Shown in pieces: positions 3,450 through 30,672 of a stretch of DNA of 64,000 nt. The stretch covers positions 4,085 to 68,084 of the forward strand of contig CACNWU010000001.1 in the NCBI GenBank assembly GCA_902624185.1. Direction: 5' to 3'. Below the pieces are notes generated by a model, which saw nothing but the letters and a program-made list of their open reading frames with translations, made no database searches and was not told where the DNA came from. How positions within the stretch are numbered: position 1 is the stretch's first letter; each line of letters starts with the position of its first letter. Source of the stretch: an uncultured Pelagibacteraceae bacterium. GTDB taxonomy: Bacteria; Pseudomonadota; Alphaproteobacteria; Pelagibacterales; Pelagibacteraceae. A program made the position numbers and the translations under genes.

Positions 3450-5002
3450 TATATAATCACATCTCTCTCTTTATTTTTGGAAACATAAATAACCGTTAAT
3501 AATCTTGCTATAAAGTAAACTGAGAAAAGAGTTGTAAAAATTCCTATACCTAATGTTAAAGAAAAACCTTTAATGGGGCCAGATCCCATAAAAAATAATA
3601 TTACCGCAGCTAACAAAGTTGTAATATTGGCGTCAAGAATAGCTGTTCTAGATTTAATATATCCAGCATCGAATGCTATGAGATTATTTTTCTCATTTTT
3701 GAGTTCTTCCCTAATTCTCTCAAAAATAAGAACATTTGCATCGACCGCCATACCTACTGTTAAGATTATTCCAGCTATTCCAGGTAAAGTAAGAGTGGCT
3801 TCGAAAATAGTTAAAATCCCAATTAAAAGAAATAAATTTATAATTAGAGTAATATTTGTAATCAATCCAAAGATTTTATATTTAATTAAGATAAATAATA
3901 TAACAAGAATAAAACCTATAACTAATGCAATTATTCCAGCTTTAATTGAGTCTTTTCCTAAATCTGGTCCAACTGTTCTTTCTTCGATAATATTTAGAGG
4001 AGCGGGCAATGCACCAGATCTTAGTAATAAAGCAAGGTCAGTAGCGGATTGAAAAGTAAATCCTCCACTAATTTGACCAGAACCACTAGCTATAGTATCT
4101 CGTATAACTGGAGCACTTATAATTTTTCCATCTAGAACAATCGCTAACTGTTTTCCAATACCTGTTGAGGTAGCTTTACCAAATCTTTTAGCACCAACCC
4201 TATCAAGCGTAAAAGAAACTACAGTTTCGTTTGTTTCATTATTCATTCTTGGTTGAGCATCTAAAAGATTATCACCACTTAGTATTATTCTTTTACTTAC
4301 AATAGCTTCATCCATGCTTTCCTCATATCTTAATTTCTCAGCACCAAAAGAATCCTCGTTATTGTTAGTAACAAACCTAAATGTTAAATTGGCAGTTTTA
4401 CCAAGTAATGATTTAATTCTCATAGGATCATCTAAACCTGGTAACTCAACTAAAATTCTATCGTTTCCTCTTTTTAAAATATTTGGCTCATTAGTTCCAA
4501 TTTCATCAATTCTTCTTCTAACTATTTCTAAAGCTTGATCCTGGGAGGAAGTTTTAAGTTCAACAATTCCTTGTTTGGAATATTCAACAAGAAAAATGTT
4601 ATTTTTTTCAATTATATTTAATTGATGAGATTTAAATCTTGGATAATAAGGATTAATATCACTTTCTTCATCATTAAAAGTTTCTATTATAGTTTGTTTA
4701 AAATCTTCTGCTACAGAAAATGAAAGTATTTGATTTTCAATTTTTATATTATTTATTCTGATATTTTTTTCTTTAAAATAATTTCTTATTGTAATTGTTA
4801 AATTTTGAAGTTTTTGTTCTATTACAGGTGTATTGTCAATTTCTAACAATAAATATGATCCACCCTGTAAATCTAGACCAAGATTAATTTTTTTATTTAT
4901 TAAGCTATTACTTAATTTTGAAAAATTTGAGGAAGCTAGTAAAATAAAAAATAATGATAATAATGTAATAATAATTATTCTTAATTTTGAAAAGTATAGC
5001 AC
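3449..5002 (-). CDS. secD: Protein translocase subunit SecD
   Basis: LGLDLQGG, LLRSGALPAP, GMAVDANVLIFERIREE; GTG start. Confidence 0.98.
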   Translation of the reverse strand: MLYFSKLRIIIITLLSLFFILLASSNFSKLSNSLINKKINLGLDLQGGSYLLLEIDNTPVIEQKLQNLTITIRNYFKEKNIRINNIKIENQILSFSVAEDFKQTIIETFNDEESDINPYYPRFKSHQLNIIEKNNIFLVEYSKQGIVELKTSSQDQALEIVRRRIDEIGTNEPNILKRGNDRILVELPGLDDPMRIKSLLGKTANLTFRFVTNNNEDSFGAEKLRYEESMDEAIVSKRIILSGDNLLDAQPRMNNETNETVVSFTLDRVGAKRFGKATSTGIGKQLAIVLDGKIISAPVIRDTIASGSGQISGGFTFQSATDLALLLRSGALPAPLNIIEERTVGPDLGKDSIKAGIIALVIGFILVILFILIKYKIFGLITNITLIINLFLLIGILTIFEATLTLPGIAGIILTVGMAVDANVLIFERIREELKNEKNNLIAFDAGYIKSRTAILDANITTLLAAVILFFMGSGPIKGFSLTLGIGIFTTLFSVYFIARLLTVIYVSKNKERDVII

Positions 5003-5018
5003 TTTATAAAAATGAAAA

Positions 5019-5306
5019 TTATTTTTTAATTTCTGGGGAATTTATTAAACTTTGAATGCCTGTACCTCTAATCACTTCCACAGTAACATTGTCAGCTATT
5101 TCTACTTCTACCTTGTCATTATCAACAACTCTAGAAATAGTTCCTGTAATTCCACCCGAGGTTACTACTTTGTCCCCCTTTTTTAAACTCTCAACCATAG
5201 CTTTATGTTCTTTAACTTTTTTTTGCTGTGGTCTTATTAAGAAAAAATAAAAGATAACAAAAATTAATATTAACGGTATAAATTGTCCTATTCCTGAACT
5301 TTCCAT
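5019..5306 (-). CDS. yajC: Preprotein translocase subunit YajC
   Basis: FYFFLIRPQQKK, GDKVVTSGG; upstream of secD. Confidence 0.98.
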   Translation of the reverse strand: MESSGIGQFIPLILIFVIFYFFLIRPQQKKVKEHKAMVESLKKGDKVVTSGGITGTISRVVDNDKVEVEIADNVTVEVIRGTGIQSLINSPEIKK

Positions 5307-5360
5307 AAAACTCCTTGCTTAAAAATGAATATTTATACCATCTATTCAATTAAAACAACT

Positions 5361-6620
5361 TTAATTCAGCGAAATTTTTTCTAAATTATTCATATAGGGT
5401 CTAAGGACTTTTGGGATAGTAATTGAACCATCTTTTTGCTGATAATTTTCTAAAATAGCAATAAGTGTTCGACCTATTGCTAAACCACTACCATTTAAAG
5501 TGCCCACATATGATATTTCTTTTTTTTGATCCTTATACCTAGCTTTCATTCTCGTGGCTTGAAAAGTAGAACATGAAGAGCAAGAAGAAATTTCTCTATA
5601 TTTATTTTCAGAAGGTAACCATACTTCTATATCATAAGTTTTTTCAGCACTAAAACCCATATCCCCACTACACAAAATTACTTTTCTATAGGGTAGTTTC
5701 AAAAGATCTAAAATATTTGTTGCACAATTCGTCATTCGTTCTAATTCTTCGAGGCATTTATCTTGTTCTACTATACTTACCATTTCAACTTTATAAAATT
5801 GATGTTGTCTAATCATGCCCTTTGTGTCTTTCCCATAACTACCAGCTTCTTTTCTAAAACATGGAGTTGAAGCAACAAATCTCAAAGGTAAAACTTTTGC
5901 TTCAATAATTTTATCTTTTACTATGTTAGTTAAAATTACTTCTGCCGTTGGTATCAAAAATTTTCTTTCAGTCCCCTCTTCAAGTTTTACCTCGAATTGA
6001 TCATTTTCAAATTTTGGGAGTTGACCAGTGCCAAACATTGAGTCTGCAGAAGCTAATAAAGGTGGTGAAATTTCTTCGTAACCATTTTTTGATACATGAA
6101 TATCTAACATAAAATTTGAAATAGCTCTTTCAAGTAATGCTAATTTATTTTTAACAAAAACAAATCTTGATCCAGTGGTTTTTGACGCTAATTCAAAATC
6201 AAGCATTCCCAAATTTTCTCCTAATTCATAATGAGACTTTGGTCTAAAATCAAAATCAGGTATCTCGCCAAATTTCTCAATCTCTAAATTATCATTTTCA
6301 TCTTTTCCAAAAGGCACATCTTCGTGAGGAACGTTTGGTATATTTGATAAAATTTTTTCTAAATCGTTTTTGATTGATTTTTGTTTTTCTACAATTTTTT
6401 CCAAGGAAGAAGAAATTTCTTTTGATTTTGAAAATAACGACTTATCTTTTGATTTCGAAATTTCTTTTTTTTCTTTTTCAAAATTTTCTTTTTTTTGTAT
6501 TAATTCTCTATTTTCTATATCTAATTTCTTAATCTTACTTAAATCTATATCTAATGATCTTTTTTCAAGAGCTTTTTTAAAAGCTTCAAAATCTTTTCGG
6601 ATTAATTTCAAGTTATGCAT
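5361..6620 (-). CDS. serS: Seryl-tRNA synthetase
   Basis: [42 protein letters not shown]. Confidence 0.99.
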
Positions 6621-7383
6621 CTGAATTTTTTAAATTTTTATTTTCTATAATTTTTACAGAAAATATTGATAATTCATATAAAATTAATAATGGTATAGCT
6701 AACCCAATTTGAGTAATAGGATCAGGCGGAGTTAATAATGCAGCTGCAGCAAATATTATCACTACTACATATTTTCTTCTTTCTTTCAAAAATTTAGAAT
6801 CAACAATACCAATTCTAGCTAATAAACTTAGAACAACAGGTAATTGAAAACTAATTCCAAATGCAAAAATAAGTTTCATAACTAGAGAAAGATATTCATT
6901 TACTTTAGCCTCAAGCTGAATAGGTAAACTCGTTGACATTCCAGTACTTTCAAATGATAAAAAAAACTTTATAGCTAAAGGCATTATCAAATAATAAACT
7001 AACATTCCTCCAAGAAAGAATAATACTGGTGTCAAAATTAGATAAGGTAAAATTGCAATTTTTTCATGTTTATAAAGACCAGGAGCAATAAATTTCCATA
7101 TTTGCATTAAAATAAATGGGCATGTAACAAAAAAAGCAGTGAAAAAAGAAACTTTTAAATATGTTAAGAAGGTTTCTTGTAGTGCGGTAAAAATTAATCT
7201 TCTATCAGATCCGTCATTTTTCACAGCCTTGGCAAATGGTTCAACTAAAAAACTATATAAATGCTCAGCAAAAAAATAACAGGCAATAAAAAAAATTATT
7301 AAAAAGATAAAACTATGTATTAGTCTTTTTCTCAACTCGGTTAAATGACTTATGAAGCCACCTTCATTTTCATCATGACTCAT
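6613..7383 (-). CDS. tatC: Twin-arginine translocase TatC
   Basis: [22 protein letters not shown]. Confidence 0.98.
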
Positions 7384-8559: not shown

Positions 8560-9296
8560 TTATTTTCTTTTATATAAATATCCTCAAAAAGGTCTTTTTG
8601 TTTAATTTTTAAATTTCCTTCTTTTACTAGTTCTAATGAACCAGCAAATATACCAGCTTTGCCTGTTCTTTTAAATTTTGATCCATTTTTAAAATTTTTT
8701 GGAATTAAATCATCTAATTTTTTCCAATCTATCAATTTACCAAAAAAATCTTTGATAGTTTTAATTCCTTCCTCTGCAGTAAAAACGGGTAATCTAGGTA
8801 TGTTAATTTTTTGAAAATCTTTTGTCGAAAGTATTGTTGAATAAACTTTTAATAATTCAAATAAATTTACTTTATATTCACTGTTATAAATTGAATTAAT
8901 TCCTGTTCTGCTTCCCCTTGTACGAATTTCTCTTCCTAATCTTTTTCTTTTCAACATTTGTTCGGATAACAATCTAATCAATTCTAGTTTTTTTAATTGT
9001 AATTTCAATTTTTCTGCTACCTCATTGACCTTAAACTCCTCCTCGGGAGTTCCTGGTAATAGTAATTTAGATTTTAAATAAGCTAACCATGTTGCCATTA
9101 ACAAATATTCAGAAGCTATTTCTAAATTTAAATTTTTTTCATTAGTAATAAAATCATGAAATTGGTCGGCTAATTTAGTAATTGATATATTTTCTAAGTT
9201 AACTTTTTGAGCCTTAGCTAAATCCAATAATACATCTAACGGTCCATTATAATTTTGAACATTTACTTTAAATAATCTAGAATCTTTTTCTTCCAT
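8556..9296 (-). CDS. scpA: Segregation and condensation protein A
   Basis: GPLDVLLDL, EYLLMATWLAYLKSKLLLP, LELVKEG. Confidence 0.96.
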   Translation of the reverse strand: MEEKDSRLFKVNVQNYNGPLDVLLDLAKAQKVNLENISITKLADQFHDFITNEKNLNLEIASEYLLMATWLAYLKSKLLLPGTPEEEFKVNEVAEKLKLQLKKLELIRLLSEQMLKRKRLGREIRTRGSRTGINSIYNSEYKVNLFELLKVYSTILSTKDFQKINIPRLPVFTAEEGIKTIKDFFGKLIDWKKLDDLIPKNFKNGSKFKRTGKAGIFAGSLELVKEGNLKIKQKDLFEDIYIKENK

Positions 9297-9305
9297 AGAT
9301 AGATA

Positions 9306-10253
9306 TTAGCTTAAAATCTTGTAAAATTGTGATGTTTTTTTAACTATAAATTTACTTAACTGCGGGGAGTTTTTTCCTACAATCTCCATTTCTTTTAAAT
9401 TTGCGTTACAATGCAGTGCAATATTACAACCTGCATTAAACGTTTTTAAAGTTTTTTCTTTAATAGATCCTTTTAAACCCTTCATTGATAAATCATCCGA
9501 AATTAATATATTTTTAAAACCAATTTTATTTCTAATTATTTTAATCAATTTTTTTGAATGAGTAACGGTGTTTTTCTCATCAATATTTTTAAAAATTACA
9601 TGAGCAGTCATTGCAAAAAAAGTTTTTTTATTTTTAAATGGAAGAAAATCATTTTTTGTAAGATATTCTAATTTTTTATTTACTATGGGCGTGTAGTGAT
9701 GACTGTCAACTTTAGCTAGACCATGGCCTGGTATATGTTTTATCACTGTTCCAATTCTATTTTTATGAAAATAATCAATACAAAAATCACCTATATTAGA
9801 GACTATTTTAGGATTTTTTGAAAATGATCTGTTTCCAATTATATTTGAACTTCCTTTTACTCTTAAATCTAAGACTGGTGTTGTATTAATATTTACTCCT
9901 ATTAAGCTTAGAAAATAAGAAGTTTTATCTACAAATAATTTAAAAAATGATTTAAATTCCAAAAAATTATTAATATATTTTCTACCAAAAAATTCTGCTG
10001 TGAGGTTTTCAAAATTTATAATATCTTTTAATCTGTTTACCTTCCCTCCTTCTTGATCAATTAAAATTGGATATTTTGAATCTTTAAAAATTTTTCTAAT
10101 TGAAGAGGTCAACTTATAAGTTTGATTTATATTTTTGATATTTCTAGAAAAAAGTATCACACCCCAAGGTTTATATTTTTTCAAAAAATCTTTTTCTTTC
10201 GATAAAAGTTTTGTTGATTTGATACCTATGATAAATGCTCTCCTTCTATTCAT
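9306..10253 (-). CDS. nagZ: Beta-N-acetylhexosaminidase (GH3)
   Basis: IDQEGG, KHIPGHG..VDSH, MTAHV, SDDLSM. Confidence 0.96.
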   Translation of the reverse strand: MNRRRAFIIGIKSTKLLSKEKDFLKKYKPWGVILFSRNIKNINQTYKLTSSIRKIFKDSKYPILIDQEGGKVNRLKDIINFENLTAEFFGRKYINNFLEFKSFFKLFVDKTSYFLSLIGVNINTTPVLDLRVKGSSNIIGNRSFSKNPKIVSNIGDFCIDYFHKNRIGTVIKHIPGHGLAKVDSHHYTPIVNKKLEYLTKNDFLPFKNKKTFFAMTAHVIFKNIDEKNTVTHSKKLIKIIRNKIGFKNILISDDLSMKGLKGSIKEKTLKTFNAGCNIALHCNANLKEMEIVGKNSPQLSKFIVKKTSQFYKILS

Positions 10254-19007: not shown

Positions 19008-19973
19008 ATGGAAATGACTTTAATTTACACGGTTATAGGTTTTGCCCTTGCCGGTTATAGCGTAATCGCTAACGACTCAATTCAAACACTAGGTACATTT
19101 ATAGCTTCAAAAAAGAAGTGGTTTAAATGGTACATACTAGCAGGATCAGCTTCTAGTGTAATGATTTTAGCTTTAGCATGGGGATGGTATTCATATGATG
19201 GTGATATTTCATACGGAAGATTAACTAGAATACCTTATCAAGAAATTCAATGGTATCATGCAGTAGCGCCTGCAATATTGCTATTATTAACAAGAATTGG
19301 AATACCGGTATCTACTACTTTCTTAGTTCTTTCAGCATTTGCTTCAACAGTTGTGCTTGAAAAAATGCTATTAAAAAGTGTAGTTGGATATGGTTTAGCG
19401 GCAATGGTCGCTTATATTGCTTGGATTGTTGTATCAAAGTTTATCAATGAAAAATTAGATGAAGTTGATGAAAAGTATATAGGCTTTTGGAGAAACTCAG
19501 TATGGGTCACTTCAGGTTGGTTATGGTGGGTTTGGTTATCTCACGATGTAGCAAACATCGCCGTATATCTTCCAAGACAACTGGATATAACAATTCTATT
19601 AACTGTAATGGCATATTTTACGGTTTTACTATTTTACATCTTTTATATTCAGGGTGGACGAATACAAACTGTAGTTTTAGAAAAAACTGGAACTAGATAT
19701 GCAAGATCAGCTACAATTATTAATGTAATTTATGCAGGTGTTTTATACTACTTTAAAGAACTTAATGATTTGCCTATGTCAACTACATGGGTTTTCGTTG
19801 GTTTATTATGCGGTAGAGAACTTGCGATTTCAACAATGAACAAAGATTATAAGTTTAAGTATGTTTTTCCATTAATTGGTAAAGACTTTCTTAAAATGAT
19901 CTTTGGATTAAGCGTATCAGTTGGAATTGTTTTAGGAATTCATTACATAATTATTCCAAATAATTGGTTCTAA
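19008..19973 (+). CDS. Multi-pass membrane protein, divergent PiT/PHO4-like (phosphate/sulfate permease-like)
   Basis: Internal repeat with ANDSIQTLGT / HDVAN and GIPVSTT / LPMSTT, echoing PiT motifs GANDxAN and PVSTTH. Confidence 0.65.
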   Translation: MEMTLIYTVIGFALAGYSVIANDSIQTLGTFIASKKKWFKWYILAGSASSVMILALAWGWYSYDGDISYGRLTRIPYQEIQWYHAVAPAILLLLTRIGIPVSTTFLVLSAFASTVVLEKMLLKSVVGYGLAAMVAYIAWIVVSKFINEKLDEVDEKYIGFWRNSVWVTSGWLWWVWLSHDVANIAVYLPRQLDITILLTVMAYFTVLLFYIFYIQGGRIQTVVLEKTGTRYARSATIINVIYAGVLYYFKELNDLPMSTTWVFVGLLCGRELAISTMNKDYKFKYVFPLIGKDFLKMIFGLSVSVGIVLGIHYIIIPNNWF

Positions 19974-19983
19974 ACAAATCTAT

Positions 19984-20014
19984 ATGGTCGTGTTAATCTA
20001 ATTAGCACGACCAT
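19984..20014. terminator. Hairpin between convergent genes, probable bidirectional terminator
   Basis: ATGGTCGTGTTAAT-cta-ATTAGCACGACCAT, 14-bp stem with one G-U pair. Confidence 0.8.
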
Positions 20015-20023
20015 TATCTTATT

Positions 20024-20362
20024 TTAAGAACTTACTTTTCCTAAATAGTTTACAAGAATAACACCAATAATTATTAAAATTATACCTACAGTTCCATAAA
20101 TATTAGGCAACTGATTGTATTTTAAAATACCAAAGATCGTTACTGCAGTAATTGTTAGTCCTCCGTATGTTGCATAGGTAAAACCAACAGGAATTATATT
20201 CATTGCTTTAGATAAACAAAATAAACATAAAACGATTGAGACTACACAAAAAATTGTTGGAAAAACATTTGTAAAACCATTGGTAGTTTTTAAGAAACCA
20301 TTAGCAGAAATTCCAAGTATAATTGCTAAAAATAAATAAATGTATCCTGATGAAAAATTCAT
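20024..20362 (-). CDS. SMR/DMT family small transporter (EmrE-like fold, Glu14 position is Gly)
   Basis: 4 TM; YIYLFLAIILG, IPVGFTYATYGG, GIILIIIGV. Confidence 0.85.
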   Translation of the reverse strand: MNFSSGYIYLFLAIILGISANGFLKTTNGFTNVFPTIFCVVSIVLCLFCLSKAMNIIPVGFTYATYGGLTITAVTIFGILKYNQLPNIYGTVGIILIIIGVILVNYLGKVSS

Positions 20363-20371
20363 CAGGTTATA

Positions 20372-21199
20372 TTATTTTATTTTTGATCTAATAAAAGCAG
20401 AAAGATGATCTATAATAAAGATTGTTACAAAAATAAGTATAATTATTGCTGATACTCTTTCATACTCAAACATCCTGAAAGATGATTGTAGTTCATATCC
20501 TATTCCACCCGCTCCAACGATTCCTAACATTGTTGCCATTCTAACATTTCTATCTAAGATATATAAATTGTTTGCAACAAATGATGGTAAGATTTGAGGT
20601 ATAACACCAAATGAAATAATTTGACTTTTAGTTGCACCAGATGATTTAAGAGCATCAATTGGTCCTTTATTAATATGCTCAATATCTTCTGCGTAAAATT
20701 TTGCTAAGAATCCCATCGTGTGTAAACCTAAAGCTAGAACGCCCGGCATAGCACCAAACCCGATAGCTATAACCAAGATCATCGCCATAATAAACTCTGG
20801 TATAGCTCTAAAAAATATAACAATAGTTTTGCAAATTATATATACAAAATAGTTTGGAGCTAAATTTCTAGCTGAAAATAATCCCAAAGGTATAGATAAA
20901 ACAATTGCAAGAAAAGTTCCTAAAATTGCAATTTCAATGGTTTCTAAGATTGCAAAAAATAATTGACTAAAATTGCTGAAATCAGGTGGTAACATTCTTG
21001 ATAAGATGTCACCAAAGTATTTTGAAGAGTCTGTTACTAATTTAATAAAATCAATCTCAAGATCTTTAACAATAAATATCAAGATTAATACCGACAAAAT
21101 GATAGAAATTAACGTTTTATATGACCATTGAGGTTTTAAGTATTTTTCAAGATTTTTATCTTTATTATCTACTTTAAGCTTTAGAATATTATCGTTCAT
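20372..21199 (-). CDS. phnE: Phosphonate ABC transporter permease
   Basis: ETIEIAILGT, RAIPE, NVRMATMLGIVGAGGIG. Confidence 0.95.
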   Translation of the reverse strand: MNDNILKLKVDNKDKNLEKYLKPQWSYKTLISIILSVLILIFIVKDLEIDFIKLVTDSSKYFGDILSRMLPPDFSNFSQLFFAILETIEIAILGTFLAIVLSIPLGLFSARNLAPNYFVYIICKTIVIFFRAIPEFIMAMILVIAIGFGAMPGVLALGLHTMGFLAKFYAEDIEHINKGPIDALKSSGATKSQIISFGVIPQILPSFVANNLYILDRNVRMATMLGIVGAGGIGYELQSSFRMFEYERVSAIIILIFVTIFIIDHLSAFIRSKIK

Positions 21200-21200
21200 A

Positions 21201-21923
21201 TTAAGTATAAATTTTCTCTAAGTTTATAGTATTTATTTTAGATGAATTTTCATCAAATATGATTTTTCCATCCATTAAGCCAACTATTCTATCTGAGTAT
21301 TTTTTTGCTAAATCTACTTGGTGAAGATTGCATAATATTGTTGTTCCAAAATCTTGGTTTATTCTTTTTAATAAAGATAAAATCAAATTTGCTGCTTTTG
21401 GATCAAGACTAGCGACAGGTTCATCGGCTAATAATAACAATGGTTTTTTAATAATGGCTCTAGCGATACCGATACGTTGTCTTTGACCACCTGATAACTC
21501 ATCTGATCTACTGTATGATTTTTCAAGTAAACCAACTGTTTCTAGAGATCTTAAAGCTTTAATTTTTTGATTTTTTGAAAATAAATAAAATAAAGATAAA
21601 AATTTATTACTTGAATTTAAAAGACCTGTTAAAACATTATTTATAGCAGACAAATTATTAACTAAATTGAATTCTTGAAAAATCATTCCTGTTTTTTTTT
21701 GAACATCTAAAATCGTATTCTTATTTACAATTTTATTATCAAAGTAAATTTCTCCTCCACTTGCTGTTTCAAGTCCATTTATACTTCTTAGTAAAGTTGT
21801 TTTACCTGATCCACTAGGTCCTAGGATGCTTACAAATTCTCCTTTATTAACTTTTAAATTAATACCCTTTAAAGCAGGAGTTCCATTATCAAAGGTTTTT
21901 TTAAGATCATTAATTTCAAGCAT
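21201..21923 (-). CDS. phnC: Phosphonate ABC transporter ATPase
   Basis: GPSGSGKTT, LSGGQRQR, ADEPVASLDP, NLHQVDLA. Confidence 0.95.
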   Translation of the reverse strand: MLEINDLKKTFDNGTPALKGINLKVNKGEFVSILGPSGSGKTTLLRSINGLETASGGEIYFDNKIVNKNTILDVQKKTGMIFQEFNLVNNLSAINNVLTGLLNSSNKFLSLFYLFSKNQKIKALRSLETVGLLEKSYSRSDELSGGQRQRIGIARAIIKKPLLLLADEPVASLDPKAANLILSLLKRINQDFGTTILCNLHQVDLAKKYSDRIVGLMDGKIIFDENSSKINTINLEKIYT

Positions 21924-21939
21924 AATAGTTTAATTTTAA

Positions 21940-22794
21940 TTAGCTTTTATCTTTATTTAATAGTTCAATAACTTCTCTTAAAACATTATAGTCAGAGTCT
22001 TTAACTTCCATGTAGTGAGACATCTTTCCACCATATCCACCTATCTCACCATGTTTATGGGCCTCTAATACTGCTTTCTTAATTTTATCCCTATCTTCTT
22101 TCGGTATCATTTTTGAATAAGCTAATGGTGGAGGTGGAACTCTATCTGATTTGTGAATAATTCTTACATCTTCTTTTTTAAAAGTACCATCTTCTAATCT
22201 TGCCTCAAAATTTCTTGAGCTCATTCCGCAAACATCAGATTGGTTATTTAATACAGCTAACAAACAAGCATCATGACTTCCGGCATAAAAAACATTTTTA
22301 AAATGGTCTTTGTTTTTAATTGAAAGATTTATTTTGCTTAACTCTACCTGGGGTATTAAATCACCACTTGTTGATCCTATGGTATTAAGGGATAAAATTT
22401 TACCCTCCACATCTTGAAATTTTTTTAAAGGACTGTCATTTTTGACAACAAAATAAGTATAATAACCAGCATCCTTCTCTCCTGGTCTTACACCTGCAGC
22501 AAAAGCTTCTGCATTAGCAATCTCAGCAGCTTTAACATATGTTTTTCCACCATACCAAGCTATATGAGCTCTACCAGCTCTCATTGCTTCAACAGCTGCA
22601 TTATAATCTGTCACTTTAATTGTATCTATTTTTAGACCTGTAAGTTTTTCAGTGATTGTAATTAAAGTTGTGTAGTCACTTTCATCACCCTTCTCACTCG
22701 CTGGAACAAACACCATTTTATAAGTATTTGAATCAGCATTAAGGTTGTTTGTTAAAAAAACTATAAGTACTATAAATAGTAATTTTTTAATCAT
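21940..22794 (-). CDS. phnD: Phosphonate/phosphite/phosphate ABC substrate-binding protein
   Basis: DYNAAVEAM, IAWYGG, STSGDLIP, GSHD; signal peptide. Confidence 0.92.
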   Translation of the reverse strand: MIKKLLFIVLIVFLTNNLNADSNTYKMVFVPASEKGDESDYTTLITITEKLTGLKIDTIKVTDYNAAVEAMRAGRAHIAWYGGKTYVKAAEIANAEAFAAGVRPGEKDAGYYTYFVVKNDSPLKKFQDVEGKILSLNTIGSTSGDLIPQVELSKINLSIKNKDHFKNVFYAGSHDACLLAVLNNQSDVCGMSSRNFEARLEDGTFKKEDVRIIHKSDRVPPPPLAYSKMIPKEDRDKIKKAVLEAHKHGEIGGYGGKMSHYMEVKDSDYNVLREVIELLNKDKS

Positions 22795-22876
22795 AATATT
22801 GATTTTAATATCATTAACTTTGTTCGCTTACAAGTTAATTTAAAATATATAAGTAGTTATTATTTCAGTAAAAACG

Positions 22877-23995
22877 CTATTTTTTTGTGAATTTTTTATT
22901 AAAGCCAGCAATAGCTTTTTTATAGTCTTCAACAGTGTCTATTTCTTTCCAACCACTTTCAATTATAACACAATGAACCTTTATTCCAATATCAACCAAC
23001 TCTTGAATAAAGTCAGTTAAATAGGCTTTTTGGAAAATCTTAGCTCTCTGGAATGGTTTATTCCAATAAATCTTTTTTAATCTATGAAAATTTTCTTTAA
23101 ATATTTTAGTTCCATGATCAGATAATTTGATCATTCCAATAAACTCACCATGAACTTCTTGATTACCTTTGTTGATTTTACCAATTTTTTCAACTTCATT
23201 ATTTGAATTAAAAATTACATTTTCAGCTTCTGAGATTGGATGATCTTTTCTTCCAACATAATAACCTCTCCAATCAATATCAACCACAACAGAAATATCA
23301 TGATTTGACTCAAGTGTTCTTTGAACTACTGAGGAGTCGAATAATATATCAGAATATGAGATTATTATATTTCCATTAATAAACTTTTCAGCATAGAAAA
23401 TTGAATTTAGAATATTGTTATTACGATAATCAGTATTTTCGAAATATTTAATACCTTTATACTTAATTTTTTCTTTTTTATAACCACGGATTAAAGATAT
23501 ATTTTCAACTCCTGAATTTTTATAGGCTTCGAGTTGTCTTTGAAGTAAAGTTTTTCCACCAAAATCAAGCATACACTTTGGCAAATTTTCAGTGTGTTTT
23601 TTTAGTCTACTGCCTAGTCCTGCTGCAATAATTAAAGCTTTTGTTTTTTTTTTACTAATTGAGTTTTCTAATAATTCAATTTGTTTTTCGTTAAGATTAT
23701 TTTCCTGGATAGTTCTTAAAAGAGAATTAATTTTAGGATTTTTAACAATAAAATCATTAATATCTGGGGCCAAAGTTTTTTTTGAATATCCAGCTAAATC
23801 ATTAAGTTTTTTGTTATCGATAGATAAAATAGAAGAAATTTTTTTTATAATATCTAATTTAGGTGCTGTTCTTTTCTCTTTTTCTATATCGTTGAGATAA
23901 GATGCTGATACTCCAATTTTTGAAGCTAATGCTCTTTGTCCTATTCCTTTTTGAATTCTTACTTCTCTTATAAATGGTCCAAATTTTTTATTCAT
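22877..23995 (-). CDS. XRE-type HTH fused to LicC/PntC-like (phosphocholine/phosphonate) cytidylyltransferase
   Basis: N-term GIGQRALASKIGVSASYLNDIEK (HTH); C-term IIAAGLGSRL..PKC, YSDILF, GEFIG, GWKEIDTVEDY. Confidence 0.85.
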   Translation of the reverse strand: MNKKFGPFIREVRIQKGIGQRALASKIGVSASYLNDIEKEKRTAPKLDIIKKISSILSIDNKKLNDLAGYSKKTLAPDINDFIVKNPKINSLLRTIQENNLNEKQIELLENSISKKKTKALIIAAGLGSRLKKHTENLPKCMLDFGGKTLLQRQLEAYKNSGVENISLIRGYKKEKIKYKGIKYFENTDYRNNNILNSIFYAEKFINGNIIISYSDILFDSSVVQRTLESNHDISVVVDIDWRGYYVGRKDHPISEAENVIFNSNNEVEKIGKINKGNQEVHGEFIGMIKLSDHGTKIFKENFHRLKKIYWNKPFQRAKIFQKAYLTDFIQELVDIGIKVHCVIIESGWKEIDTVEDYKKAIAGFNKKFTKK

Positions 23996-24005
23996 TAGTT
24001 AATAT

Positions 24006-25130
24006 TTAAAAACATATTTTTGAAAAATTTTTATCAAAATAATCTATAGTATTTCCATAATTATAAAAATTATTTTCTAAAAAATTATCAATTTCTTTTT
24101 TATCAAAACTTGCTATTGCCTTATTTATAACTTTATCAATTTCATTTAATTCATGTTTATTAAATTCATATCCAAATTTATCTTTAATAGTATCTTCTAT
24201 TGGAATTAAGGTCTTAAATTTCTCAAAACTTTCATTATGTACTTTATCAAAATCACTATAAAAAATTACAGGTTTTTTAAATAACATCATGTATTCTATT
24301 GATATACCTGAATTATCAGTGATTAGACATTTTGCATTTTTCATTGCTTCAAAATTTTCAGAATTATCATCAAATAAAAAATTTTTATGTTTAAAATTTT
24401 CTTTATAAGATTCCATTAAATTTTGTGATCTTTTTACTGTTTCTGGATGAGGTCTAAATCTTACTTTGTAACCTGAGTTTAACAAGTTTTTAAGAATTTC
24501 TTCAAAATCTTCATTAATAAAATTAAGTCTATTTTTGTTCCAAGATGGAGCAACTAGAATTTCGCTATCATTCTGTGACTCTGTGATTTTGTCTTTTAAA
24601 TAATCAAAATAAAAAAAACCTGATTTTATTAATTTTTTTTCTTTTAAATTATCTAACTTTTCTCTTTGGCGAATTTCTTCAATTTGATATTCACCATTAC
24701 ATAATATTGTATCGTAATTATCAAATGCTGTTGATGTATAGATTCGTGTCGTACTTACTGCACCGTGAAAAAAATAAATATAATTCTTCACAAAACCGTT
24801 TCTCTTAATAATATTGTTGTTAAGATCGGTCAAAGTCATAAATAAATTATCTGTTACAATACTTTTAAAGAAATACTGTAACAAAAAGCCATTACCAATA
24901 TAGACATTAACTACATTTAAATCTGAAACTTTATCGTTAATATCTGACGATACATAATATACATCTCCTGGATATTTTTTCGATAAATATTCTAATATTG
25001 GATAACCATACTTCAAATACGCCCTATTTTCAGAATAAAAAATAAATCTTGGTTTATTTTTATTTATATTATTTATTTCCTTAAATTTAAGAAAAAAATT
25101 TTTTAGATTATTTGATAATTTTTTTAACAT
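24006..25130 (-). CDS. CDP-glycerol:glycerophosphotransferase (TagB/TagF-like) family protein
   Basis: FFHG, LVAPSW, FRPHP, LITDNSGISIEY..KPVIF motifs. Confidence 0.8.
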   Translation of the reverse strand: MLKKLSNNLKNFFLKFKEINNINKNKPRFIFYSENRAYLKYGYPILEYLSKKYPGDVYYVSSDINDKVSDLNVVNVYIGNGFLLQYFFKSIVTDNLFMTLTDLNNNIIKRNGFVKNYIYFFHGAVSTTRIYTSTAFDNYDTILCNGEYQIEEIRQREKLDNLKEKKLIKSGFFYFDYLKDKITESQNDSEILVAPSWNKNRLNFINEDFEEILKNLLNSGYKVRFRPHPETVKRSQNLMESYKENFKHKNFLFDDNSENFEAMKNAKCLITDNSGISIEYMMLFKKPVIFYSDFDKVHNESFEKFKTLIPIEDTIKDKFGYEFNKHELNEIDKVINKAIASFDKKEIDNFLENNFYNYGNTIDYFDKNFSKICF

Positions 25131-25136
25131 CTTTAA

Positions 25137-26327
25137 TCATTTTACTCTTCCATAGATATCTTGAAATCTAACAATATCACTTTCTTTTAAAATTGAACCT
25201 ACTTGAGCTTCTATAATTTTAACAGGTTTTTTATAGGGATTTTCTATTCTATGGATTGCACCTAATGGAATAAAAATAGTTTCATTAGGTTTCAATGTAA
25301 AACATTTCTTGTTCAAAGTAATTTTAGGTTTACCATTAGTAACTACCCAATATTCAGCTCTGTGATGATGTTTTTGAAGACTTAATATACCTTTAGGTTT
25401 TACATATAATTCTTTTATTAAAAATTCTTTACCATTAAATAGATTTACATAACTACCCCAAGGTCTATGAAATACATTTTTCTTTTTAAAGTATTGTCTC
25501 TTATTCCTTCCATACATCTTACAGATTTCTTTCCAAGATCCTAAATCAGACCAAGGAATATCTAATTTAATAGCATTTATATCTTTAGTTTTTTCTAATA
25601 TTGCATAATCAAAAGACTTAGCTTTTGCTTTGGTAAATGCTTGTTTGTTTAAATAATACACATTACTTTTATATTTTGCTTTTGTTACTGCTTTAAGACA
25701 ATTTCTATAAATATTTGGTTGGTATTTTTTAAAATTATTAATGATTGAGTCTTTTCTCAAATAAAACATTCCAGAGTTCCAATAACCTTTTTTACTTATA
25801 ATTTGTTTAGCTTTAGCTTCTTTAGGTTTTTCTATAAATCTAGTTACTTTGGTATTTTTAGTTAAAAAATATCCAAATTCACTAGAAGGCATTGTGGGTT
25901 TAATCCCAAAAATAAATATATTATTTGGGGTTAGTTTCTTTTGATTTTTTTTAATAGCTTTATTAAATAAACCAACCTTCTCTAACAAATGATCAGCAGC
26001 AAAGAACATTAAAGGTTGTTCGTGTGGAATATCCTTTATTAATGCAGTACTTAATATAGCTGGTGCCGTATTTCTTTTTGCTGGCTCTAAAACAATTTTA
26101 AATTTTCTTATTTTGTGTTTTTTAAAATGCTGTTTAACTTGTTTTAGATATTTTGTATTTGTGCTTATGATTGGTGTATCAAATATAGAGGATTTTATTC
26201 TTTCTAGAGTTTTACCTAATAATGTCCAATTACCAAAATCTATAAACTGCTTTGCTTGATGTTTTTTAGCATTTGGCCAAAGTCTTGTTCCTGCTCCACC
26301 ACATAAAATTACTGGGCGAATTTTCAT
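25137..26327 (-). CDS. manC: Mannose-1-phosphate guanylyltransferase / mannose-6-phosphate isomerase (shortened)
   Basis: ILCGGAGTRLWP, EPAKRNTAPA, WNSGMF, WSDLGSW, RPWGSY, SLQKHHHRAE cupin. Confidence 0.92.
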   Translation of the reverse strand: MKIRPVILCGGAGTRLWPNAKKHQAKQFIDFGNWTLLGKTLERIKSSIFDTPIISTNTKYLKQVKQHFKKHKIRKFKIVLEPAKRNTAPAILSTALIKDIPHEQPLMFFAADHLLEKVGLFNKAIKKNQKKLTPNNIFIFGIKPTMPSSEFGYFLTKNTKVTRFIEKPKEAKAKQIISKKGYWNSGMFYLRKDSIINNFKKYQPNIYRNCLKAVTKAKYKSNVYYLNKQAFTKAKAKSFDYAILEKTKDINAIKLDIPWSDLGSWKEICKMYGRNKRQYFKKKNVFHRPWGSYVNLFNGKEFLIKELYVKPKGILSLQKHHHRAEYWVVTNGKPKITLNKKCFTLKPNETIFIPLGAIHRIENPYKKPVKIIEAQVGSILKESDIVRFQDIYGRVK

Positions 26328-28045
26328 TAAATCTTTGAGTAATCCTTAACTTCTTTTTTCTTACCTGGATGTGTTGGTGCACCTAAATACGCAGGTCCAA
26401 CCGTTTGTGCATATTTCCAAAGTGTTCCTGATCCAAAATCAGATTTTCTAGCTTTCCATTTTCTTCTTCTTGAGGCTAGCTGTGCTCTTGTTAATCGAAC
26501 GTTAATCGTTCCCTTTTTAGCATCTATATCAATTACATCTCCATTACGTAAAAGAGCAATAGGACCTCCTAAAGCAGCCTCTGGTCCCACGTGACCTACA
26601 CAAAAGCCTCTTGTAGCTCCTGAGAACCTCCCATCAGTAATTAGAGCAACCTTCTCTCCCTTACCTTGACCATAAATAGCACCTGTTGTTGAAAGCATTT
26701 CTCTCATACCAGGTCCACCTACTGGTCCTTCATATCTAATGATGATTACATCACCATCTTTATATTTTCTACTTTGAACAGCTTTCATTGCGCTTTCTTC
26801 ATTATCAAAACATCTTGCTCTTCCAGTAAATTGTAATTTTTTAAGTCCAGCAATTTTTACAATTCCACCTTCTGGAGCTAAATTTCCTTTTAATCCTACA
26901 ACACCACCATCTGGTGATAAAGGTTTATTGTAAGCTCTTAAAACTTTTTGCTTAGGATTGAATTTAATTCCTCTTAAATTTTCTTTCATTGTTTTGCCAG
27001 TTACAGTCATACAATCACCATGAATGTAACCACCATCATAAAGAGTTTTTAACAACATAGGTACACCCCCAGCTAACCACATATCTTTTGCAACATATTT
27101 TCCACCTGGTTTTAAATCAGCAAGATAAGGAGTTTTTTTAAATATTTTTGCAACATCCATTAAATCAAATTTAATTCCAGCTTCATTTGCTATTGCTGGT
27201 AAGTGCAAAGCTGCGTTAGTTGATCCTCCAGTTGCAGCTACAATTGTTGCAGCATTTTCTAACGCTTTTTTAGTTACAATATCTCTTGGTTTTATTTTTT
27301 TTGCTAATAGTTCCATTACCATTCTACCACTTAATTTTGCGTACTTATCTCTTTCCTCATAAGGAGCTGGTGTTCCGGCTGAGTAAGGTAATGCTAAACC
27401 AATAGCTTCTGAAACACATGCCATAGTATTGGCAGTAAACTGACCTCCACAAGCACCTGCGCTTGGACATGCAACTAATTCGAGATTTCTTAATTCTTTT
27501 GCAGACATTTGTCCTGAGGAATGTTTTCCAACAGCTTCAAAAACATCAACGACAGTTACATCTTTACCTTTATATCTTCCAGGTAGTATTGATCCACCAT
27601 AAATAAAAACACTTGGAACATTTAATCGAACCATTGACATCATTAAACCTGGTAATGATTTATCACAACCAGCAATACCTACTAACGCATCATAACAATG
27701 GCCTCTTACAGTTAGTTCTGCTGAGTCAGCAATTACTTCTCTAGAAATTAATGAAGACTTCATTCCCTCATGTCCCATTGCGATACCATCAGTTACAGTA
27801 ATTGTACAAAATTCTCTTGGAGTTCCACCTGAAGTTCTTACACCTTTTTTTACTGACTGTGCCTGTCTCATTAAAGCTATATTGCATGGAGCTGCCTCAT
27901 TCCATGTTGAAACAACACCTATAAATGGTTTTGATACATCTTTTTCAGTTTCCCCCATTGCATAATAAAAAGATCTATGTGGAGCTCTATCAGCACCTAA
28001 AGATGTATGTCTACTTGGTAATTTTTTCTTATTAAATTTCCGCAT
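26327..28045 (-). CDS. ilvD: Dihydroxy-acid dehydratase
   Basis: [32 protein letters not shown]. Confidence 0.98.
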
Positions 28046-30672
28046 TATAAACTTTCAATAGTTAATGATATTTTTTTGATATCATTTTTTAAATTACTAT
28101 AGTTAGTTTTTTCTTGTTCAACAATATTTTTTGGAGCTCTATCTGTAAATCCTTTATTTGATAATCGCTGGGATATCTTGTCCATTTCTTCTTGATATTT
28201 GTTCTGTCTTTTAAGCAAATTTTCCTTTATTAAATTTAAATCAACATTCTCATCAAAATATATCTTAAATATGTCACCAGATATGACTAGAGTAGCTGAG
28301 GGTTTTTTCTGATCCTCATCATAGAAATTATTGATACGTCCGAGCTTTTTAAGAACTACCTCGTTATTTGTCATTAAAATTTTGTTCTTTTTAGCAATTT
28401 TATTAATAGATATATCTATAAATGATCCTGGGCTCACATTTAATTCATTTTTAAATGATCTAAGTTCAGATATAACATTAATAATTTTCTCAACATCCTT
28501 CATCGACTGATCTTTTTTGGGCTTACCTACAGGCCAGTTTGCATACATAAGAAAATTATTATTAGATTTATCAAATTTATTTTTAAGCCAAATTTTTTCT
28601 GTAACAAATGGAATAAATGGATGAAGAATAATTAATATTTGTTTAAATATATAGGCAGATACTTCTTTTACCTCTTTTTTGGCTTTTTCATCATCAGAAA
28701 AAAGAATTGTTTTTGAAAGTTCGATATACCAATCACAATATGAATGCCAAGCAAACTGGTAGGCATTTTTAGCAGCCTCATCAAATCGATAATCTTTGAG
28801 ATTTTTTTCTATCTTGTCTTTTGTTAAATAAAGTTCTGAATAAATCCACTTATTAATATTTAATATAGCTTTAGGGGCATTATTAGTTTTATTAAAATCA
28901 CATTTGTTAGTGATTAAAAAGTTATTAGCATTCCATAATTTGTTTAAAAAATTTCTATATCCTTTAACTCTATCCTCAGAAAGTTTCACATCTGTGCCTG
29001 GTGAAGCCATTGAAAGAAGTGTAAATCTTAAAGCATCCGCACTATATTTTTCTATTAAGTCTAGAGGATCAATAACATTCCCTTTTGACTTAGACATTTT
29101 TTGTCCCTTTTCATCTCTTACTAATGCATGAACATAAATATCTTTAAATGGTTCTTTATTTAAAAACTCCATTCCAAACATCATCATTCTTGCTACCCAA
29201 AAAAAGATAATATCAAAACCTGTAACCAAAACTGTTGTAGGATAAAATTTCTTAACAAAATCTTTTTTATCAGGCCAACCTAATGTTGCAAAAGGCCATA
29301 AACCTGAAGAAAACCATGTGTCTAATACATCGGGATCTCTAACTAAATTTACATCTTTTTTATAAAACTTTTTAGCTTGTTTTTTTGCATTACTTTCATT
29401 TGTTGCAACAAAAATTTTTTTATTTGGTCCATACCAAGCTGGTATTTGATGACCCCACCAAAGTTGTCTTGATATACACCATGGTTCAATATTGTTCATC
29501 CATTGAAAATAAGTCTTTGACCAATTTTCTGGAAAGAAATTTGTTTTTTTAGACTTAACAATTTTCTTCGCTTTAATAGATAATTTTTTAGCATTTACGA
29601 ACCATTGTTCCGTTAAAAAAGGTTCTATAATTGAATTAGATCTATCCCCATATGGTACTTTATTTTTTATATTTTCCTCTTTAACAAAGAAATTTTTTTC
29701 TTTTAATTCATCTAGTATTTTTTTACGAGCTTCAAATCTATCTAATCCAATATAATTTTTTGGAGCATTTTTGTTAATTTTACCATCTTTAGTAAAAACA
29801 TTTATGATTTCCAATTTGTTTCTTTGTCCAACATCATAATCATTAAAATCATGAGCTGGAGTTATTTTTAAAGCACCTGTTCCTTGCTCTGGGTCAGCAT
29901 AATTATCTTTTATGATCTTAATTTTTCTTCCTACAATGGGGATAGTGACTGTCATACCTACGAATTTCTTAAATCTTTTATCTTTTGGGTTTACTGCAAT
30001 CGCAGTATCACCAAGCATAGTTTCAGGTCTTGTAGTAGCTATAGTGATGAATTCATCAGATTTATCTATAGGATACTTAATATAGTAAATCTTAGAATTC
30101 ATTTCTCTTTGATCTACCTCTAAATCAGATATTGCTGTTTTTAATACAGTATCCCAATTTACTAATTTTTCAGCTTTATAAATTAATTTTTTTTTATGAA
30201 GTTCAACAAAAACTTTAATTACAGATTTTGATAAATTTTCATCCATAGTAAAAGCATTTCTGGACCAATCACATGAGCAACCAAGTTTTTTAAGCTGGTT
30301 GATTATTATATCTCCATATTGATTTTTCCATTCCCACACTTTTTTAATAAATTTTTCTCTACCTAAATCATTTTTATTTAAATTTTCATTTTCTAGTTTT
30401 TTTTCAACAAGAGCTTGGGTTGCTATTCCCGCATGATCTGTACCGGGTTGCCATAAAGTTTCGTAATTATTCATTCTGTAATAACGAGTTAAAAGATCTT
30501 GAATTGAATTATTCAATGCATGGCCCATATGTAAACTTCCAGTTACATTGGGTGGTGGAATTACTATTGAGAATTTTTTTTTATTTTTTTTAGGTTTGAA
30601 AAGTTCATTTTTTTCCCAGTATGAATAAATATCATCTTCTACTTCAGAATGTATATATTTATCGCTACTCAT
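28045..30672 (-). CDS. valS: Valyl-tRNA synthetase
   Basis: [29 protein letters not shown]. Confidence 0.99.

Follow-up and report, generated by a model that had tools for sequence, protein, structure and literature searches.

A putative phosphonate salvage version of the surface-decoration pathway in a flexible island of Candidatus Pelagibacter (SAR11)

The 64,000-nt window analysed here comes from an uncultured Pelagibacteraceae bacterium (contig CACNWU010000001.1 of assembly GCA_902624185.1; Candidatus Pelagibacter, SAR11; 917 kb in 34 contigs, 80% complete) and carries, side by side on one strand, genes for a TagF-like transferase, a cytidylyltransferase fused to a helix-turn-helix domain (HTH-NTase, NTase standing for nucleotidyltransferase), a PhnDCE importer and an SMR-family transporter. 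Comparison with related loci leads us to propose, with moderate confidence, that this island encodes the SAR11 pathway of phosphonate surface decoration in a salvage ('take') version. Confidence is kept at this level because the catalytic and regulatory steps (CMP activation, transfer, DNA binding and the direction in which it regulates) were all inferred from comparison, as were the nature of ligand and acceptor and the part played by the SMR protein. According to our model, PhnDCE would import a small non-amino phosphonate from seawater, and the NTase domain would couple this to CTP, giving a CMP-phosphonate in the way that PntC acts on aminoethylphosphonate (AEP). The TagF-like enzyme would then release CMP and esterify a hydroxyl of a surface glycan, a glycoprotein glycan or a lipid-linked precursor with the phosphonyl group. 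The same frame of manC, TagF-like gene, HTH-NTase, operator and SMR gene would carry either phnDCE or pepM-ppd-Fe-ADH-mpnS (Fe-ADH, Fe-type alcohol dehydrogenase), so that a strain would be either a maker or a taker of the head group.

The locus consists of seven genes, all on the minus strand, 3' of valS (28045-30672) and ilvD (26327-28045), in a window with a G+C content of ~28%:

25137-26327, minus strand: manC, mannose-1-phosphate guanylyltransferase / phosphomannose isomerase (PF00483 and PF01050), in TAATG overlap with ilvD
24006-25130, minus strand: TagF-like (TagB/TagF-fold) phosphotransferase, 374 aa, assigned from its fold and the PF04464 matches of its relatives
22877-23995, minus strand: HTH-NTase, an HTH::PntC/LicC-like cytidylyltransferase (PF01381, HTH_3, and PF12804, NTP_transf_3)
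21940-22794, minus strand: phnD, periplasmic binding protein of clade A (PF12974, 168 bits; TIGR01098, 175 bits)
21201-21923, minus strand: phnC, ABC ATPase (TIGR02315, 311 bits; cut-off 266)
20372-21199, minus strand: phnE, permease (TIGR01097, 288 bits; cut-off 217)
20024-20362, minus strand: SMR-family transporter with four transmembrane segments (PF00893)

Gaps between these genes, from manC to the SMR gene, are 6, 10, 82, 16, 1 and 9 nt. The earlier note on this DNA had described the genes as co-oriented and tightly spaced, with a single 82-nt exception and the ilvD/manC overlap, and this layout was confirmed. The note had also counted manC into the module, which did not hold, and its GDP-mannose-derived glycan is therefore a conjecture. 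An orthologue of manC occurs in 218 of 240 Pelagibacteraceae genomes (a tally that takes in one genome flagged unpublished, G111, on which the claim does not depend), whereas in the order-level sample of 301 genomes the TagF-like gene was found in 15, a full-length HTH-NTase in 4 and a clade-A PhnD in 3. Thus, manC is a core backbone gene that marks the island edge and lies outside the module, and the module, comprising the TagF-like gene, HTH-NTase, phnDCE and the SMR gene, forms a flexible insertion behind the core genes valS-ilvD-manC.

Data from sister SAR11 strains give the closest view of what this module may do. In these strains, the slot after valS-ilvD-manC-TagF-like holds pepM, ppd, Fe-ADH and mpnS instead of phnDCE. 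The single-amplified genome (SAG) AG-909-C05 (L049) has the order manC, TagF-like (75% identity), PhyH, CT::PepM, Ppd, Fe-ADH, HTH-NTase (82%), MpnS and SMR (80%), and by this orthology the NTase, transferase and SMR protein of the window correspond to components of a predicted de novo methylphosphonate cluster. In G167 (L019), valS-ilvD-manC-TagF-like (65% identity) is followed by MpnS, a TagD-type cytidylyltransferase, CT::PepM, Ppd and Fe-ADH. Its PepM (TIGR02320, 362 bits; cut-off 320) and Ppd (TIGR03297, 364 bits; cut-off 313) are above cut-off, and its MpnS homologue matches PDB 6b9s at 1.5e-108 versus 2e-65 for HEPD. Moreover, the Fe ligands H148, Q152 and H190 together with F162 and I184 (N. 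maritimus numbering) are kept in all six SAR11/alphaproteobacterial MpnS homologues; these five residues are reportedly diagnostic of MPnS (Born et al. 2017). SAR11 mpnS clusters therefore share with the window the orthologues of TagF-like, HTH-NTase and SMR, the operator described below and the chromosomal site, and differ by having four biosynthetic genes where the window has phnDCE. SAR11 pepM and mpnS clusters beside glycan genes have been described (PMC8931226, Acker et al. 2022; PMC9381506). The presence of both enzymes in such clusters lends support to the suggestion of the earlier note that the head group would be activated with CTP and then transferred to a surface glycan. Within the cluster of L049, a PhyH-family 2-oxoglutarate dioxygenase gene (L049:11140-11883) lies between the TagF-like and CT::PepM genes, and its product may hydroxylate the phosphonate head group.

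The SMR gene accompanies both 'take' and 'make' cassettes: it follows phnE in L002, L021, L025, L041, L046 and L050, and mpnS in L049. The two modes appear mutually exclusive, with no PhnD above cut-off in four 'maker' genomes and no PepM above cut-off in five 'taker' genomes. The window-type island is intact in a 1.25-Mb JGI metagenome contig (L002) and is split over two contig ends (L025, L026) in G237. On the tree of TagF-like proteins, 'take' and 'make' labels are intermixed, 'take' requiring at least 6 changes for 8 rows, and the window protein is sister to the 'make' protein of L049 with 99% support. We conclude that, while the transferase backbone diversified, the cassettes on it were swapped repeatedly. 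The order manC-Ppd-HTH-NTase-operator-phnD on metagenome contig MDSY01102580.1 (L167), where PepM is missing from the interval manC-Ppd, has the appearance of a recombinant of the two cassettes. Two irregular loci were also seen at this site. In L002, gene calling splits valS into four pieces and manC into two (4447-7072 and 8790-9996), and these breaks are probably assembly frameshift errors, not pseudogenes. At the manC site of SAG AG-907-A11 (L045), mpnS and the gene of a small cytidylyltransferase remain while pepM, ppd and adh are missing, and a PepM gene on another contig (G308:C2:122250-123098) contains an in-frame TAA.

The 82-nt gap between the HTH-NTase gene and phnD contains two further features:

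22844-22872, minus strand: sigma-70-like hexamers TTTACT-17-TATATT, 5' of phnD, from a consensus scan only and weak in an AT-rich genome
22814-22838, minus strand: 25-nt inverted-repeat element TTAACTTGTAAGCGAACAAAGTTAA, with 7-bp arms and an 11-nt spacer, a putative HTH-NTase operator

The element starts 6 nt after the promoter-like -10 hexamer and is present as a single copy in the 917-kb genome even when up to 4 mismatches are allowed. HTH-NTase and phnD flank it in 11 related loci (0-2 mismatches) and on ~50 metagenome contigs, and in L049 it is flanked by HTH-NTase and mpnS. When metagenome contigs were scanned with the 17-nt core of the element, 80 loci came back. Among them, those that had a near-complete copy (up to 4 mismatches) and sufficient flank almost always showed the order HTH-NTase-element-phnD; both flanking genes were called directly on 37 contigs, and the others, when spot-checked, had contig ends or alternative start codons. 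An Rfam scan of the locus gave no match to the element, nor any riboswitch or other known RNA in the 82-nt gap. In L046 (12232-12345), two copies of the operator core precede phnD, one full and one partial (TTAACTTGTTAGCGAACGGTTAAT).

The simplest reading of these data is that the element is the operator of the XRE-HTH domain, and that HTH-NTase would control whichever gene supplies its substrate, mpnS or phnD. We propose that HTH-NTase is both a CTP:phosphonate cytidylyltransferase and a local repressor. In such a trigger-enzyme type of control, its XRE-HTH domain would bind the inverted repeat just 3' of the phnD promoter, and the supply of head group would be tied to the state of the enzyme through this binding. 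Cassette alternation at one site and the shared operator extend what the earlier note had put forward.

An arrangement of this kind could also arise from chance adjacency, in which manC, two glycan genes, and a transporter with the SMR gene would be three unrelated units in a streamlined genome. Indeed, manC is an unrelated core gene and SAR11 operons are dense, and the promoter scan, whose matches were rarer than in shuffled sequence, is uninformative on this point. Conservation speaks against it. HTH-NTase-operator-phnDCE is kept in different contexts on the ~50 independent contigs, and TagF-like genes recur with NTase or pepM genes across SAR116, Bacteroidota, Saccharibacteria, Cyanobacteria and Chloroflexota. 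In a survey of 50 TagF-like loci from species-representative genomes, with neighbours taken within 10 kb, PepM (plus Ppd) was near the TagF-like gene in 17, including SAR116, Chitinophagaceae, Saccharibacteria and cyanobacteria, HTH-NTase with phnDCE in 7 and a LicC-like NTase only in 8. Conversely, a TagF-like gene lies directly 5' of HTH-NTase-phnDCE in 14 of 21 informative metagenome contigs, a count that includes a remote 449-453-aa branch (three contigs), one member of which was tested by hhalign (95% probability). A 367-aa gene 5' of the unit in L139 was tested as well and is not TagF-like. Outside the manC site, the neighbours of HTH-NTase-phnDCE are surface-glycan genes, not phosphorus-catabolic genes: they encode sulfatase-family membrane proteins, NeuB, UDP-GlcNAc 2-epimerase, DegT, a formyltransferase, APS kinase and sulfotransferases. 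The earlier note had looked to a linkage of this PhnD clade with NTase and TagF-like genes, and these genes are co-conserved across different contexts. Chance adjacency is thus largely refuted by the synteny survey, and we regard it as very improbable.

HTH-NTase has an XRE-HTH domain at residues 9-58 (PF01381, HTH_3, 41 bits, above cut-off) and a complete NTase domain at residues ~116-372 (~255 residues). In PDB sequence searches, the NTase domain matched LicC (1jyk, 4e-13) and PntC of Treponema denticola (Tde-PntC; 6pd1, 3e-10), and profile searches gave the same two in the same order (2e-22 and 5e-18). By Foldseek, PntC-AEPT (6pd2, 3e-16) comes first and LicC (1jyk, 2e-15) second. The LicC/PntC-type call of the earlier note is therefore borne out by both sequence and fold. 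The N-terminal (A/G)GxGxR...PK nucleotide-binding signature of LicC-type NTases is present, and A125, G126, R130, K140, D216, E351 and D353, a nucleotide- and metal-binding signature, are invariant in 24 NTase sequences. Because these residues are invariant, the domain looks catalytically active and not like a dead sensor. A JGI annotation names the protein L-glutamine-phosphate cytidylyltransferase, of the Campylobacter MeOPN pathway, which was ruled out as no glutamine kinase or pathway genes lie nearby. A search of viral contigs gave no HTH-NTase relative, and a search for shorter, NTase-only relatives returned mostly fragments.

Activation of phosphonates by PntC has been described by Rice et al. 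2019 (PMC6697681), and in that work E104 and E196 of Tde-PntC, and D105 and D192 of LicC, contact the amine of the substrate. In our alignment, Tde-PntC E104 corresponds to Y214, which is invariant in the NTase, and the second acidic position (Tde-PntC E196 / LicC D192) corresponds to Q331 in a low-confidence part of the alignment. From the replacement of Glu104 by Tyr214, the substrate is probably not AEP. The Pnt pathway, PepM-Ppd-(AEPT)-PntC with a LicD-like transferase (PMC6697681), resembles the system proposed here in that a LicC-family enzyme activates a phosphonate with CMP for surface glycans, and PntC-AEPT is the best fold match of the NTase. The differences are that no pepM was found here and the head group would come from an ABC importer, that the transferase is TagF-like and not LicD-like, and that the NTase carries an N-terminal XRE-HTH domain as well as the tyrosine.

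The 374-aa protein had no Pfam match above cut-off, PF04464 included, and a PDB sequence search with the protein and its family profile found no relative. It has >1,700 relatives in a 50%-identity representative protein library, and PF04464 (TagB/TagF glycerophosphotransferase) is matched by 51 of 96 diverse relatives (best E 6.8e-18). An AlphaFold model built from the 96-sequence alignment reached a pLDDT of 96.3, and the top 11 Foldseek matches of this model are TagF chains (3l7m/3l7i, E 7e-13 to ~1e-12, TM ~0.6), with Cps3D, a TagF-like capsule polymerase, and TarL ranking below TagF, and UDP-GlcNAc 2-epimerases lower still. The TagB/F-type call of the earlier note is thus upheld through relatives, model and fold, though not from the query alone. 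Four residues never vary across the 96 sequences, namely H122, S126, A194 and H228, the last within an RPHPE motif, and H122 and H228 are candidate counterparts of the TagF catalytic pair H444/H584. We propose that the protein is a CMP-phosphonate:acceptor transferase. The TagD/TagF teichoic-acid system shares with it the GT-B-like TagF fold and the pairing of a cytidylyltransferase with a TagF-family transferase, and SAR11 'maker' clusters use TagD-type (PF01467) cytidylyltransferases. It differs in that the host here is a Gram-negative alphaproteobacterium, the query falls below the PF04464 threshold, and the donor is presumably a CMP-phosphonate.

Proteins of 530-550 aa from the sulfatase family (alkaline-phosphatase superfamily) adjoin the TagF-like gene in three loci (L004:327-1973, L069:4768-6420 and L081:11083-12675), and these may be periplasmic head-group transferases. 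The methylphosphonate clusters of Nitrosopumilus maritimus and SAR11 (Metcalf et al. 2012; Born et al. 2017) reportedly combine pepM-ppd-pdh-mpnS with nucleotidyltransferases and sulfatase-like genes, and the neighbours seen here resemble the sulfatase-like genes of the N. maritimus cluster.

Ligand clues come from the binding protein as well. PhnD is above cut-off for PF12974 and TIGR01098 and below it for TIGR03431 (208 bits; cut-off 261). Its residues Y64, Y111, S141, T142, S143 and H174 align with Y47, Y93, S127-S129 and H157 of E. coli PhnD, and these six phosphonate-contacting residues are invariant in 12 clade-A members. The E. coli amine-clamp residues E177 and D205 are replaced by R194 and P222, which are also invariant in clade A; the roles of the E. 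coli residues are those reportedly assigned in the 3P7I structure paper. PhnD and NTase both point away from amino-phosphonates and phosphocholine, and AEP and phosphocholine are unlikely ligands. A non-amino phosphonate is likely, methylphosphonate being our best guess and 2-hydroxyethyl- or hydroxymethyl-phosphonate the alternatives. Methylphosphonate is named mainly because mpnS and phnD, which share the element, would both deliver intracellular methylphosphonate. The clue from the amine-contacting positions is suggestive only, because the C-P-lyase-linked PhnD of SAR11 also lacks the E. coli amine clamp. The pocket argument excludes an E. coli-type clamp only, and PtxB, which binds phosphite, is the top PDB match of PhnD, as close as E. 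coli PhnD itself.

Two variants of the importer genes were seen in related loci. In SAG AG-464-P07 (L069:8021-9574, minus strand), a 517-aa permease has an N-terminal PhnD-like domain, 33% identical to PhnD over 243 aa, fused to PhnE, besides a separate phnD. In L004 (7232-8122), a UbiE-like methyltransferase gene follows phnDCE, and this may be the 'phnCDEubiE' operon that was laterally transferred between HIMB59 and Pelagibacter (PMC12416821).

This limit of the pocket argument and the PtxB match weigh against the salvage proposal, and so do several features of the loci. The window cassette contains no acceptor glycan genes. G212 has HTH-NTase-phnDCE-SMR without an adjacent TagF-like gene, and several metagenome contigs likewise have HTH-NTase-phnDCE without one. 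The 88% complete genome G269 has a full-length HTH-NTase (82% identity) among GT1/GT2, sulfotransferase-like and LicD-family genes (L020, G269:C3, 9734-13796), with no phnD or pepM detected in the genome and no operator at HTH-NTase. The island lies within the SAR11 phosphate/arsenate flexible region, which fits a nutritional role too, and in L002 and L046 it abuts phoR-pstSCAB-phoU, which keeps the nutritional reading alive. All carrier genomes are incomplete, being either 80-92% complete or single-cell genomes of 0.8-1.1 Mb, and the finding of no linkage to C-P cleavage in carriers was made without dedicated models for PhnZ, HpnWXZ and PtxD.

These points lead to two alternatives. A Lic-like pathway would import phosphocholine, phosphoethanolamine or glycerol phosphate, convert it to a CDP-alcohol with the LicC-like enzyme and install it with the TagF-like enzyme. 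The Lic pathway of S. pneumoniae and H. influenzae (LicB, LicA, LicC and LicD) follows the same logic of head-group import, CTP activation and installation on a glycan, and LicC is the closest solved relative of the NTase by sequence. TagF enzymes use CDP-glycerol or CDP-ribitol, E. coli PhnCDE carries some phosphate esters, and the HTH-NTase of G269 sits beside a LicD-family gene. The window differs from Lic by an ABC importer in place of the LicB permease, a transferase of another family, a proposed phosphonate cargo in place of phosphocholine, and the lack of a kinase, which a phosphonate would not require. Orthologues of NTase and TagF-like embedded in pepM-ppd-adh-mpnS clusters argue for a phosphonate, as do the phosphonate-specific PntC at the top of the NTase fold matches and the retention of all six phosphonate-contacting residues in PhnD. 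In addition, the acidic residue with which PntC and LicC contact the amine is a tyrosine here (PMC6697681). Hence, we consider a phosphoester pathway quite improbable.

The other alternative is phosphorus nutrition. PhnDCE would scavenge phosphonate or phosphite under phosphate stress, HTH-NTase would be a ligand-sensing regulator, the TagF-like gene would be unrelated, and C-P cleavage or phosphite oxidation would be carried out by an unrecognised enzyme. Besides the phoR-pstSCAB-phoU neighbourhood, the PtxB match and the G212 unit, this is favoured by the classically catabolic role of phnCDE and by the C-P lyase cluster of HTCC7211 (G043), which lies ~25 kb from manC in the same region. The phnCDE genes of HTCC7211, for which Carini et al. 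2014 is cited in PMC12789548, encode an importer of the same PhnCDE type in the same chromosomal flexible region. The window differs from them by its order phnDCE, the absence of phnGHIJKLM, a distant PhnD, and an XRE-HTH enzyme fusion as regulator, where C-P lyase operons are reported to have a GntR protein (PMC9381506).

Surveys of catabolic genes argue against the nutritional reading. PhnJ was not found in nine carrier genomes, that of the window and eight others, and in five carriers there was no PhnX, PhnA or PepM above cut-off and no adjacent PhyH/HD pair, PhyH-family and HD-domain genes being present but apart. Two PEP_mutase matches in the genome of the window are below cut-off for PepM; one is PrpB in a prpD-prpB-prpC operon and the other is weaker. 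A PhyH gene ~4 kb downstream of the G212/G237 cassette was considered as PhnY and rejected, because MIP, ArsC-like phosphatase and ZnuA genes surround it and no HD protein is encoded nearby. In the 301-genome sample, PhnJ is present in 31 genomes, 29 of which have a PhnD match, and in the PhnJ genomes compared, the PhnD gene is a few kb from phnJ (e.g. HTCC7211, G043). All nine C-P-lyase-positive Pelagibacter genomes in the sample carry a non-clade-A PhnD, and the three genomes with a clade-A PhnD have no PhnJ. Clade-A PhnD is 24-30% identical to the C-P-lyase-linked PhnD of SAR11 (28-30% in the 301-genome sample). The PhnD locus of IMCC9063 has PHO4, PhoU_div and HAD genes and gave no PhnZ.

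The HTH-NTase and operator that precede mpnS in a biosynthetic cluster, the conserved catalytic signature of the NTase and the glycan-gene neighbours elsewhere are likewise at odds with nutrition, which we consider unlikely. The absence of C-P lyase and pepM, which the earlier note had reported for the window, thus extends to the whole 80%-complete genome. Its two further suggestions, that an intact phosphonate is imported and that its use is anabolic rather than nutritional, gain support from the co-conservation of phnDCE with HTH-NTase and from the failure to find a catabolic pathway genome-wide in carriers, as far as genome comparison can tell. We therefore retain the salvage reading.

At the downstream end of the locus, one more feature was recorded:

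19984-20014, no strand assigned: hairpin with a 14-bp stem and a T-rich tail, in the interval between the SMR gene and a convergent 321-aa gene

This hairpin is likely a bidirectional terminator that closes the operon. The 321-aa gene (19008-19973, plus strand) has no Pfam or NCBIfam match; in G212 and G237 it is followed by MIP, ArsC-like phosphatase and PhyH genes. In the same two genomes, the SMR gene is followed by a co-oriented EamA-family transporter gene (L021:13808-14650 and L025:3955-4797), which the window lacks.

In the literature searched, we found no description of a TagF-like enzyme as phosphonate transferase, of an HTH::PntC fusion or the operator that goes with it, or of phosphonate import coupled to CMP activation and transfer. 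In the literature searched on methylphosphonate clusters of SAR11 and Nitrosopumilus, the transferase and the regulator are unnamed and no salvage version appears. Taken together, the comparisons allow a broader and more tentative proposal, which we hold possible without thinking it the likelier outcome. The TagF-like family would esterify methyl- or hydroxyethyl-phosphonate onto marine bacterial polysaccharides; SAR11 would be split into makers (pepM/mpnS) and takers (phnDCE), the latter reusing free phosphonate as a shared good for the same coat; and HTH::PntC would be a trigger enzyme setting mpnS or phnD through one operator.

No other bacterial group in the ocean is as abundant as SAR11, much of the dissolved organic phosphorus consists of phosphonates, and phnD commonly serves to indicate phosphonate consumption and phosphorus stress. 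If our reading is true, phnD reads in ocean 'omics data would partly report surface decoration and not phosphorus stress. The comparison also names candidates for two steps that marine phosphonate biology still lacks, a glycan-esterifying transferase and a regulator with a defined operator. Moreover, a make-or-take polymorphism at one chromosomal site is suggested, and pressure from phages or grazers, together with the cost of de novo synthesis, could drive it.

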